This document shows positions 15,298-18,291 of a stretch of 64,000 bases of DNA, one piece after another (the first letter of the stretch is position 1; the number at the start of each line of letters is the position of its first letter). Source of the DNA: Escherichia coli (lineage in GTDB: Bacteria; Pseudomonadota; Gammaproteobacteria; Enterobacterales; Enterobacteriaceae). The stretch lies in the NCBI RefSeq assembly GCF_041248615.1, contig NZ_CP158426.1; one strand, written 5' to 3'. Below the pieces are notes generated by a model. The model was not told where the DNA came from. It was given only the letters and a program-made list of their open reading frames with translations, and searched no databases. The position numbers were made by a program, and so were the translations under genes.

Positions 15298-15728
15298 GGT
15301 TCCTCCTTATCGTTCCCTTAAGAATACTGCGTGAGATAATAATGAGAAGCGGAGCACTCTGAAAGGAAGATGATGCTTTTTCTACCTCGCCATCGCGAAC
15401 CAGACACTGGTTTTAGTCATACTGTATTTGCGGAGAAACTGTTGATAAAACATCAATAACATCATTTGACGTGGCAATGACATAATGCTCGATCACATTA
15501 TTTTTATAAATTTCACAACTTTGCATAGTAAACCATGCAAAGTAGGCGGAATTCACTACTCTATAGATCCCCGTTTGGTTAATACCGTGAATTCCTGACA
15601 TTCCTAACAAATCACCTTCGTCAGTAACACGAAATGAATGTATCCAGTCAAATGATAACTTAACTTCTGACTTGATCGCCGGACATATGAGGGTAAGTTC
15701 AAGCCTGGCATTTTTATAGCTTAAATCT

Positions 15729-15736
15729 GATAGTTC
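15729..15736. repeat. left target-site duplication GATAGTTC
   Basis: 8-bp direct repeat immediately outside the left inverted repeat; identical copy at 17052-17059. Confidence 0.65.
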
Positions 15737-15808
15737 GAGCCTGTACATAGATTTGTGTAATTGCCTGATTTTGATATGTTCAATCCAGCATCAAATGAAG
15801 GTTAATTT

Positions 15809-17017
15809 ATGGACGAAAAACAGTTACAGGCTCTGGCTAACGAACTGGCCAAAAACCTCAAAACCCCTGAAGACCTCAGTCAGTTTGATCGGCTGCTGAA
15901 AAAGCTCAGCGTTGAAGCCGCTCTCAATGCAGAGATGACACACCATCTTGGGTATGAGAAAAATCAGTCCAGACCAGGAGCTAACTCCCGCAACGGTTAT
16001 TCCACAAAGACCGTTATCACAGGCGACGGTCCACTGGAACTGCGTACTCCGCGCGATCGTGACGGTACCTTCGAACCACAACTGGTAAAGAAAAATCAGA
16101 CCCGTATTACCGGGATGGATAACCAGATCCTCTCGTTGTATGCCAAAGGGATGACCACCCGTGAGATAGCCGCTGCGTTCAAAGAACTGTATGACGCAGA
16201 TGTTTCACCGGCACTGATATCAAAGGTTACCGATGCCGTGATGGAGCAGGTTGTAGAATGGCAAAACCGACCACTGGATGCTGTTTACCCCATTGTTTAT
16301 CTTGACTGTATCGTCCTGAAAGTTCGGCAGGACAGTCGCATCATCAACAAATCGGTGTTCCTGGCACTGGGCATCAATATCGAAGGTCAGAAAGAACTGC
16401 TGGGTATGTGGCTGGCCGAAAATGAAGGGGCGAAGTTCTGGCTCAATGTGCTGACTGAACTGAAAAACCGCGGTCTGAACGATATCCTCATCGCCTGTGT
16501 GGATGGCCTGAAAGGCTTCCCGGATGCCATCAACACAGTATATCCGAAGGCCCGCATCCAGTTATGCATCGTGCATATGGTGCGCAACAGCCTGCGCTTC
16601 GTGTCATGGAAGGACTACAAAGCCGTCACTCGCGACCTGAAAGCGATTTATCAGGCTCCCACGGAAGAGGCAGGTCAGCAGGCACTGGAAGCGTTCGCTG
16701 CGGCCTGGGACAGTCGCTATCCTCAGATAAGCCGAAGCTGGCAGGCTAACTGGCCGAATCTTGCCACGTTCTTCGCTTATCCAACGGACATCCGCAAAGT
16801 GATCTATACGACGAATGCCATCGAGTCGCTAAACAGCGTGATCCGCCATGCGATCAAAAAGCGTAAAGTGTTCCCGACAGACGACTCGGTGAAAAAAGTG
16901 GTGTGGCTGGCAATCCAGTCTGCGTCCCAGAAATGGACGATGCCGTTGAAGGACTGGCGAATGGCAATGAGCCGCTTTATTATCGAGTTCGGTGACCGCC
17001 TGGACGGTCACTTCTGA
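15809..17017 (+). CDS. tnpA: IS256-family (IS1414-like) transposase, 402 aa, apparently intact
   Basis: Track ORF; conserved blocks typical of mutator-family transposases (VDGLKGF, QLCIVHMVRN, TTNAIESLN). Confidence 0.9.
   Translation: MDEKQLQALANELAKNLKTPEDLSQFDRLLKKLSVEAALNAEMTHHLGYEKNQSRPGANSRNGYSTKTVITGDGPLELRTPRDRDGTFEPQLVKKNQTRITGMDNQILSLYAKGMTTREIAAAFKELYDADVSPALISKVTDAVMEQVVEWQNRPLDAVYPIVYLDCIVLKVRQDSRIINKSVFLALGINIEGQKELLGMWLAENEGAKFWLNVLTELKNRGLNDILIACVDGLKGFPDAINTVYPKARIQLCIVHMVRNSLRFVSWKDYKAVTRDLKAIYQAPTEEAGQQALEAFAAAWDSRYPQISRSWQANWPNLATFFAYPTDIRKVIYTTNAIESLNSVIRHAIKKRKVFPTDDSVKKVVWLAIQSASQKWTMPLKDWRMAMSRFIIEFGDRLDGHF
16524..16640 (+). CDS. astA: heat-stable enterotoxin EAST1 (38 aa), embedded in the +1 frame of the transposase gene
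   Basis: Not in ORF track (<60 aa). Translation MPSTQYIRRPASSYASCIWCATACASCHGRTTKPSLAT with four Cys at positions 17, 20, 24, 27; matches EAST1 as I recall it, including its known location inside IS1414 tnpA. Confidence 0.85.
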   Translation: MPSTQYIRRPASSYASCIWCATACASCHGRTTKPSLAT

Positions 17018-17051
17018 GAAAAGGCATTTACACAGAATCCTAAACAGGCTC

Positions 17052-17059
17052 GATAGTTC
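17052..17059. repeat. right target-site duplication GATAGTTC
   Basis: Identical 8-bp copy to 15729-15736, immediately outside the right inverted repeat. Confidence 0.65.
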
Positions 17060-17232
17060 GGCATTTTTAAAAGACAATGAAGTCGGAGTGATATTTATAA
17101 AACATTCATCCATGTTAATACCCCTTCATATATGAGACTGCTCTCGATAGACGACACATTAACCTTCTGCAAAAACGGTGCGAGTCTGTTTACGTACCAT
17201 GTATAATCGATGGACATTACTGTGATTTGAAA

Positions 17233-17682
17233 TTACCTTGTCCAGTCATCAACCATTTTTTTCAGGGGGAACATCTGCAATACATTCATTAATGCGAAAT
17301 ATAATTCCCCCTGTGGCACCCATATTCTAATCTTCTCACCCCCTAAAATGAAAAATTGCAATTGACGTTTGAAACCTAATGTTTTATCTTCAGGTAATTC
17401 AGCTTGTATTTTTTTATTGATATCATCAAGGTAGATGTGATGACAATACTCATCAAACATACTCATTACTTCCAGACCGTTTACAGATGTCCATCTTTGT
17501 TCACTTTCCCAATAAACAAGAACCGGTTTGCGGCAGGTATATCTGCCTAAAAAGCGCTGAATGTGTTCTTCCTGATTCTCGTAAAATATTGCCTCTGCAT
17601 TCGAGATTTGCCGACGCATTCGCCAGCGGATTTTTTCTTCATAAAAAGACAATTTGTCGCATTTGGTATTACTCAAATTCAT
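17233..17682 (-). CDS. hypothetical protein (149 aa from ATG; track ORF starts 3 codons earlier at TTG), AT-rich islet gene
   Basis: Track ORF 17233-17691; ATG at 17680-17682 preferred. No family recognised. Overlaps the upstream gene's stop by 14 nt. Confidence 0.55.
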   Translation of the reverse strand: MNLSNTKCDKLSFYEEKIRWRMRRQISNAEAIFYENQEEHIQRFLGRYTCRKPVLVYWESEQRWTSVNGLEVMSMFDEYCHHIYLDDINKKIQAELPEDKTLGFKRQLQFFILGGEKIRIWVPQGELYFALMNVLQMFPLKKMVDDWTR

Positions 17683-18061
17683 TGTCAACAACTCGCATGG
17701 TTTTAAATATAAAATTTAAAAAACCGCCAAACAAATGAAGTGAAATTTCATACTTCTTTGCCTTATAAACAATTACCGCATCTTTAATATTACCTGCATT
17801 TTGGTTATCTATAAGTTCAGCAATATCCATAACCTGCGATAAATGTTCCACTCCCGTAAACTCGAACCTTTTTCGTTCCCTTCCGGCTGTAAATTCATCA
17901 ACATAAAGTTCTGCCGTCAATATAAAATTATACTCGGTGTGGTGACATTCCATTCTGGTTTCTACTAAAACACCATCATGCCAGATAATATTGTCTAAAT
18001 TTTTCATACTATTAATCCAATCCATTACTTTCTGATAAAATTTCCTCTGGAAGTTTTTCAT
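17669..18061 (-). CDS. hypothetical protein (130 aa), AT-rich islet gene
   Basis: Track ORF with ATG start and in-frame stop 3 codons upstream; no obvious SD; no family recognised. Confidence 0.5.
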   Translation of the reverse strand: MKNFQRKFYQKVMDWINSMKNLDNIIWHDGVLVETRMECHHTEYNFILTAELYVDEFTAGRERKRFEFTGVEHLSQVMDIAELIDNQNAGNIKDAVIVYKAKKYEISLHLFGGFLNFIFKTMRVVDNEFE

Positions 18062-18234
18062 AGAAAGAGATTAAAGCCTGACCGACGCAATCAAGCTCTA
18101 TTATTCGCTCATAATACGATCTCATTAAAATATCATGCTTACTCATTGCAATACGTCCTGTTTACCATGGGCAGAGTATGAATGTAACTTATGTAAAATA
18201 GTACCGCCCTTGCTATTTTTCAGAATTCATAAAG

Positions 18235-18268
18235 AAAAAACCCGGCGCTAAATGCTTACCGGGTTTTA
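18235..18268 (-). terminator. intrinsic terminator downstream of hrpA
   Basis: ACCCGG-loop-CCGGGT hairpin flanked by A-run (plus) and T-run, 25 nt past the hrpA stop; separates hrpA from the islet genes. Confidence 0.6.
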
Positions 18269-18291
18269 GATTTATCAGGCAAATAGCAGTG

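Follow-up and report, generated by a model that had tools for sequence, protein, structure and literature searches.

The question raised by this locus is what fills the interval between the core genes ydcF and hrpA of Escherichia coli, and what the genes found there are for. The DNA analyzed here (the window) is a stretch of 64,000 nucleotides from contig NZ_CP158426.1, and the chromosome NZ_LT599825.1 (E. coli NRZ14408) is 100% identical to it. The interval contains an islet of small minus-strand genes, one of which is split by an insertion sequence (IS). The islet is probably a chromosomal array of orphan immunity genes that has no toxin gene and is in decay. Such an array would neutralize toxins of contact-dependent growth inhibition (CDI), which are delivered by the type V secretion system (T5SS), and Rhs toxins, which are delivered through a type VI secretion system (T6SS). 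This assignment is drawn from sequence homology and gene context.

The small genes of the islet are named A, B, C, and D, listed from the hrpA side. Their positions in the window are as follows.

18012-18146, minus strand: gene A remnant, 44 codons; the first ~35 codons are followed by a short out-of-context tail
17669-18007, minus strand: gene B, 112 amino acids, intact (WP_001523214.1), in its RefSeq form
17233-17682, minus strand: gene C, 149 amino acids, intact (WP_126716438.1)
17052-17113, minus strand: gene D, 5’ part, the start codon and first ~20 codons, MDECFINITPTSLSFKNAELS; it reads on into the IS (open reading frame, ORF, 16829-17113)
15413-15737, minus strand: gene D, 3’ part, codons ~19-125 of 125, placed by a coordinate map against the IS-free islet

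Gene A is 141 amino acids at full length and is intact in O157:H7. In the window, ~313 bp of this gene is replaced by 22 bp, for a net deletion of roughly 291 bp, and RefSeq annotates the remnant as a pseudogene (18042-18146). Gene B is contained in a 130-codon ORF (17669-18061) whose upstream extension is not kept between lineages. The start of C overlaps the end of B by 14 nt. An intact gene D (WP_000343026.1, 125 amino acids) is present in the IS-free islet of strain CFSAN061763. An ATG inside the end of the IS creates a 111-amino-acid hybrid D ORF (15413-15748, RefSeq WP_192459724.1), the product of which is on record from 12 contigs. The only intact islet genes of the window strain are B and C, and D is at best an N-terminally truncated hybrid protein. 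The initial annotation, made from the sequence alone, had described three minus-strand ORFs of 130, 149, and an IS-split 125 codons. All three are present, while the fourth gene, A, had been overlooked. The products of A-D are named hypothetical proteins in public sources.

The D family has 55 homologues, which outside Escherichia are 39-48% identical. In Duffyella gerundensis, the ATG of the D homologue lies 7 bp past the stop codon of a CdiA with Fil_haemagg_2 and PT-VENN domains. The chromosome and a conjugative element both have this arrangement, and the AVENN motif of the CdiA can be read in the DNA. In Cedecea neteri and in one metagenome contig, the D homologue sits inside orphan cdiA-CT/cdiI arrays, with CdiI_2, CdiI_3, and CDI_Immunity_Comp genes as neighbors. 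The Cedecea locus contains a frameshifted remnant of the Duffyella-type toxin domain (~90 residues) directly upstream of the D homologue. The E. coli gene D has no cdiA or CT fragment nearby and for this reason counts as an orphan. It has no match in Pfam, NCBIfam, or PDB sequences, so no described CdiI family fits it.

A gene of the SymE_toxin family lies convergent to the Duffyella D-family gene, just 3’ of it (loci L006-L008, 8434-8766). Another SymE_toxin-family gene lies within a CDI orphan array of a different contig (locus L011, 3114-3317).

The C family comprises 79 representatives of about 140 amino acids by exhaustive HMMER search and is without a name. When 52 C-family members were scanned against Pfam, no match was found for any of them. 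A C homologue of 41% identity has a 62-nt overlap with the 3’ end of a 1,500-amino-acid Rhs ORF, which itself follows Hcp and VgrG. The pair formed by this Rhs toxin end and the C homologue is found again as an orphan module, in an Rhs array with CdiI_3 and CdiA_C genes among its members. A second C homologue, of 33% identity, overlaps by 47 nt a different carrier with a VENN-like ‘AVNNN’ junction. Over its last ~100 residues, this carrier shares 46% identity with the Rhs toxin domain (E = 8e-33). A toxin domain that occurs on two delivery scaffolds and is followed each time by a C-family gene is the signature of a polymorphic toxin-immunity pair. In addition, a C-family domain is joined to a CdiI_3 domain in a single 237-amino-acid ORF (P0080, locus L018, 447-1160). 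Either the two domains are truly fused in one double-immunity protein, or the gene caller has run two genes together. The E. coli gene C has no toxin adjacent.

For the Duffyella CdiA-CT, the shared N-terminal region has a PDB match, to the N-terminal part of a CdiA tRNase chain (5j43). A common linker with the pattern N-x-G-K-x-L-T-x-x-E-K-x-E-L-G-G...G-W-G-P-x-D-E-E was seen before unrelated toxin domains in three places.

Locus L008, 7560-7720: linker in the Duffyella CdiA
Locus L015, ~6620-6760: linker in the Rhs protein
PDB 5j43: linker in the N-terminal part of the CdiA tRNase

E. coli genes annotated as ‘RHS element core protein’ are also listed for this linker. It looks like one module of T5SS- and T6SS-delivered toxins alike.

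The islet agrees with the pattern of an orphan array: C and D come from two unrelated toxin-linked families, lie in tandem, and have no effector in cis. The toxin domains found beside the D and C homologues have no tblastn match in the window or in the E. coli loci. Because two islet families each have toxin-adjacent homologues, an immunity role is favored over an unrelated one. Each of the small cytoplasmic islet proteins would inactivate, by binding, one family of toxin domains that neighboring bacteria inject. A carrier of the array would survive contact with toxin-deploying competitors, itself being no toxin producer. In the window strain, the array would have been reduced to B and C, with D split by IS1414 with its astA gene and A removed by an internal deletion. 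This account presumes that the islet genes are expressed, that their products neutralize toxins at the present day, and that the cognate toxins are of the kinds found beside the homologues. The immunity class of B and A would follow from their association with C and D and from the conserved overlap between B and C.

The initial annotation had guessed at an immunity/antitoxin cassette. The immunity part is supported for C and D, whose homologues stand behind CdiA and Rhs toxins. It is not supported for B, nor is the antitoxin part in the type II sense, for which the islet offers no toxin partner. A type II toxin-antitoxin or similar addiction cassette, in which one of the small genes would be the toxin, is highly improbable. 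In general look the islet does resemble such a cassette: its genes are small and overlap, they follow one another on the same strand, and the DNA is AT-rich and accessory. Set against this likeness, no toxin-antitoxin family was matched in NCBIfam, Pfam, or PADLOC, the genes are lost singly in different lineages, which an addiction module tolerates poorly, and the C and D families are tied to secreted polymorphic toxins and not to intracellular ones. The type II module was rejected, with no recognized toxin or antitoxin families adjacent and with single-gene losses on record.

A number of observations weigh against the assignment of the islet to orphan immunity genes. No significant match to A-D was returned by Pfam, NCBIfam, PADLOC, or PHROGs, and A-D thus match no curated immunity family. 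Two C-family members are solitary among housekeeping genes, so linkage to a toxin is not universal in this family. Structure prediction, which had been proposed as a check in the initial annotation, gave a confident model for gene C, with a predicted local distance difference test score (pLDDT) of 91. The model has N-terminal helices followed by a PH-like beta-sandwich. The fold search with this model returned generic PH-like domains and uncharacterized or YokE-like bacterial proteins, and no solved immunity protein was among the matches listed. A PH-like fold, as predicted for C, does not by itself point to immunity. Specificity is the norm among immunity proteins, and identity between the E. 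coli proteins and the homologues found beside toxins is only 33-48%. A DNA-level search of E. coli genomes did not find the Rhs toxin module; a short stretch upstream of the toxin domain was all that matched. A consensus scan for promoters and terminators did not rise above the shuffled background.

Genes B and A add to the points on this side. No relatives of B or A outside Escherichia were found by word-index protein search, and tblastn of B and A against plasmids gave no match. A scan of GTDB species representatives gave 1 locus, in an Escherichia species. A degenerate-motif scan of metagenome contigs gave 10 matches, all 10 of which are Escherichia islets at this site. On these searches, B appears restricted to Escherichia islets at this site, and B and A appear to be without a toxin link. 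No relationship was found between B and D by BLASTP, or between B and the C and D profiles by hhalign. The structure check fared poorly for gene B, where a shallow alignment gave an AlphaFold model with a pLDDT of 56. This model was left out of the fold search on account of its quality. Sequence searches of the PDB with A-D and with both toxin domains returned nothing except the N-terminal region shared with 5j43. In the literature, nothing specific was found on the accessions of A-D or on the hrpA-ydcF locus as an immunity islet.

Some of the same observations would fit a different cellular role, such as that of a regulator, a stress protein, or a phage defense. The toxin adjacency of the homologues would then not be transferable to the Escherichia genes. 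The missing toxin link of B and A, the solitary C-family members, and the generic PH-like fold that C has in common with YokE-like proteins all point in this direction. B, C, and D are also kept as a trio with overlapping frames and could act together. We consider such a role improbable nonetheless. No defense or regulatory match was found in PADLOC, PHROGs, NCBIfam, or Pfam, two independent islet families are placed by their homologues in the immunity position, behind two different toxin domains, and the alternative allele of the site, described next, is annotated as SMI1/KNR4, a widespread immunity superfamily.

The islet is carried by 586 of the 5,426 complete E. coli genomes, including those of O157:H7, and is absent from K-12, in line with its initial description as accessory. 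The proposed search for an IS-free version among pangenome assemblies found that this version exists and is common. Of the 586 islet-positive genomes, 335, largely of the O157:H7 type, have an intact gene A, and in the other 251 this gene is deleted. An alternative cassette occupies the same hrpA-ydcF site in 186 genomes, and the remaining genomes are K-12-like. The alternative cassette consists of a plus-strand gene named SMI1/KNR4 by RefSeq (WP_000413852.1) and a 99-amino-acid gene, with remnants of C and D beside them. WP_000413852.1 has no match in NCBIfam, and the SMI1/KNR4 label rests on the RefSeq product name.

Locus L004, 2890-3680, plus strand: example of the alternative cassette, E. 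coli eco-241

In one strain, an IS1 lies inside the SMI1/KNR4 allele (H71).

Other species of the genus have the islet at the same site. In E. albertii, a DUF7021 gene is followed by intact B, C, and D at 62%, 61%, and 74% identity, respectively, and the overlap between B and C is kept. In Escherichia sp. MOD1-EC7003, a DUF7021+DUF2262 gene is followed by A, B, C, and D. This is the fullest form of the islet, with five same-strand genes. Another Escherichia lineage retains just B, at 64% identity. The SMI1/KNR4 allele and the DUF7021+DUF2262 gene together indicate that the site turns over immunity-type genes.

The extra first gene of the islet in other Escherichia species encodes DUF7021 and DUF2262 (Pfam E = 6e-43; locus L017, 4730-5446, and locus L025, 6152-6667). 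The E. albertii form of this gene is shortened to DUF7021 alone. A literature search on DUF2262 returned nothing specific.

Between E. coli lineages and Escherichia sp. MOD1-EC7003, the synonymous divergence (dS) of the islet genes is 0.06-0.25, similar to that of ydcF (0.10-0.22). Gene B has a ratio of nonsynonymous to synonymous divergence (dN/dS) of 0.19-0.60, C one of 0.22-0.52, D one of 0.27-0.34, and A one of 0.33, with ydcF at 0.07-0.10. In more divergent comparisons, the value for B is 0.19-0.26, and it is about 0.2 at a dS of about 1. The range of 0.19-0.60 for A-D points to moderate coding constraint. Since the site is shared across Escherichia species and dS is like that of ydcF, the islet looks old, mostly vertically inherited within Escherichia, and repeatedly eroded. 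Its presence at the same site in several Escherichia species also means that it is not a new acquisition of the window strain. The horizontal acquisition suggested at first may describe the ultimate origin of the islet, given its AT-richness. Within Escherichia, in contrast, the islet appears old and vertical.

The erosion is the second subject on which the assignment can be challenged. The islet is missing from about 86% of complete E. coli genomes. This absence, the deletions of A, and the disruption of D in the window strain together suggest that selection has been weak or episodic. The same record would suit a functionless relic, in which leftover immunity genes of an ancient CDI/Rhs locus, having lost their toxins, drift to deletion and protect against nothing. 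Further points for a relic are the loss of one or more genes in E. albertii and in another Escherichia lineage, the mere scraps of C and D kept in the SMI1/KNR4 allele, and the failure of the DNA-level search for the Rhs module to find a cognate toxin in E. coli. A relic is nevertheless unlikely. The dN/dS values are well below 1 (including that of B at a dS of about 1), the reading frames are intact across species-level divergence, and the B/C overlap is conserved in E. albertii.

A broader form of the immunity assignment is possible, and is put forward tentatively. In this form, hrpA-ydcF would be a genus-wide, multi-allelic immunity hotspot with ABCD, SMI1/KNR4, and empty alleles. It would provide a standing defense against the CDI and Rhs toxins of other Enterobacterales, kept by purifying selection since before the split of E. 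coli and E. albertii. B and A would found new immunity families, and C would represent a PH-like immunity fold for a toxin domain of ~100 residues.

The IS that splits gene D was bounded by alignment with the IS-free islet of strain CFSAN061763 (locus L002). The features of the insertion are as follows.

15729-15737: target-site duplication, left copy, 9 bp, GATAGTTCG, seen as the overlap of two alignment blocks
15738-17051, plus strand: IS1414 (IS256 family), 1,314 bp
15809-17017, plus strand: IS1414 transposase, 402 amino acids (RefSeq ‘IS256-like element IS1414 family transposase’)
16524-16640, plus strand: astA (EAST1 enterotoxin), intact, 38 codons, translation MPSTQYIRRPASSYASCIWCATACASCHGRTTKPSLAT
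17052-17060: target-site duplication, right copy, 9 bp, GATAGTTCG, a direct repeat of the left copy

The terminal inverted repeats of the element are imperfect and lie at 15735-15766 and 17022-17053. The astA gene is embedded in another frame of the transposase gene. The element has the features of the IS256 family and of IS1414, namely a length of ~1.3 kb, terminal inverted repeats, an 8-9-bp duplication, a single transposase ORF, and an embedded astA. It had been called IS1414-like with an embedded astA at the outset, and its boundaries, 9-bp duplication, and intact 38-codon astA bear this out. Among the 5,426 complete genomes, IS1414 is present at this site solely in NZ_LT599825.1. In this chromosome, 14 places match a 3.2-kb query, which implies about a dozen further copies of IS1414/astA.

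The association of astA with IS1414, and the IS1414-driven amplification of astA in E. coli, are described in PMC12585946. The element in the window is like those surveyed there in size, family, intact astA, and multiple genomic copies, with no notable difference. The insertion site inside gene D alone is peculiar to the strain or clone. This part of the locus is already well described, and its relevance here is the inactivation of one candidate immunity gene.

On the minus strand, the order of genes is hrpA (18292-22194), the islet, ydcF (14497-15297), and aldA. With the ydcF start at 15297 and the hrpA stop at 18292, the interval is 15298-18291, or 2,994 bp. The K-12 interval between the same genes is 271 bp and is gene-free. 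These lengths confirm the roughly 2.9 kb of accessory DNA reported initially, and the possibility that the three ORFs are annotated genes of K-12-like genomes is set aside by the empty K-12 interval. A blastn comparison of the K-12 intergenic region with the IS-free islet found shared DNA of 70 bp on the ydcF side and ~61 bp on the hrpA side. Between these flanks, a 138-bp K-12-specific segment is exchanged for islet-specific DNA.

15298-15367: shared intergenic flank, ydcF side
15368-18228, no strand: islet-specific DNA including the IS, from blastn and the coordinate map between the window and the IS-free islet
18229-18291: shared intergenic flank, hrpA side, holding the hrpA terminator hairpin

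The GC content is 36.5% for the non-IS islet DNA, 50.6% for IS1414, 51.7% for ydcF, 53.7% for hrpA, and 49.6% for the whole window. The GC content at third codon positions is 0.29-0.39 in the islet genes and 0.51-0.62 in the flanking genes. The small-ORF DNA had been judged by eye to be AT-richer than its flanks, at 35-40% GC, and the measured values agree.

A prophage or integrative element was also considered for this interval and rejected, as the site does not vary between species, an integrase is missing, and nothing like att repeats was seen.

Two observations were made on the neighboring genes. The gap gene adjoining aldA, at window positions 11818-12819, is given in the annotation as an intact type I glyceraldehyde-3-phosphate dehydrogenase. 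Its K-12 counterpart, gapC, is a pseudogene. The E. coli ydcF is a core gene directly downstream of the islet on the same strand. In P. aeruginosa, the YdcF-family protein PA2066 has been put forward as a T6SS toxin bound to Hcp2 (PMC8262886); the parallel with the islet’s neighbor is probably coincidental.

CDI and Rhs loci are known to have orphan cdiA-CT/cdiI and Rhs-CT/rhsI modules downstream of them (Poole et al. 2011, PMC3150448). The islet is like these modules in that its genes are small, AT-rich, tandem on one strand, and subject to rapid turnover, and the homologues of D and C sit in such arrays. It differs in having no cdiA, cdiB, rhs, vgrG, toxin-CT fragment, or adjoining secretion locus. 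It is made up of immunity-type genes only, and its neighbors, hrpA and ydcF, are two housekeeping genes.

Immunity arrays without toxins are also known, as the acquired interbacterial defense (AID) clusters of gut Bacteroidales (bioRxiv 10.1101/471110) and the orphan immunity arrays of Vibrio cholerae (PMC5361080). The islet shares with these arrays several unrelated immunity-type genes, the lack of cognate effectors, and a strain-variable presence. Their presumed role is defense against non-kin toxins, and the islet would protect in the same way. AID clusters of the Bacteroidales occur in an integrase, recombinase, or mobile-element context. In contrast, no integrase or recombinase is present in or next to the islet, which is tied to no mobile element. 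Unlike the Vibrio cholerae arrays, the islet has no adjoining T6SS cluster. The islet also differs from both kinds of array in that its site is fixed on the chromosome and apparently vertical across Escherichia species, with at least three alleles.

Among described immunity families, the homologues of C and D share neighborhoods with CdiI_2 (PF18593), CdiI_3 (PF18616), CDI_Immunity_Comp (PF28203), and SMI1/KNR4 (SUKH). The likeness extends to the one C-family domain found joined to CdiI_3 and to the SMI1/KNR4-annotated gene at the same site in 186 genomes. A-D differ from the Pfam CdiI and SMI1/KNR4 (SUKH) families in showing no sequence similarity to them in Pfam scans. Placed beside these systems, the islet is real and would be a fairly ordinary case of orphan immunity genes.

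The added value is modest. The unannotated families C and D gain a testable function, each paired with an uncharacterized toxin domain. If the islet is protective, roughly one sequenced E. coli in nine, the O157:H7 lineage among them, would be shielded against contact-dependent toxins that they do not make themselves. K-12 and most other strains would be unshielded, a difference that would matter for competition between strains in the gut.

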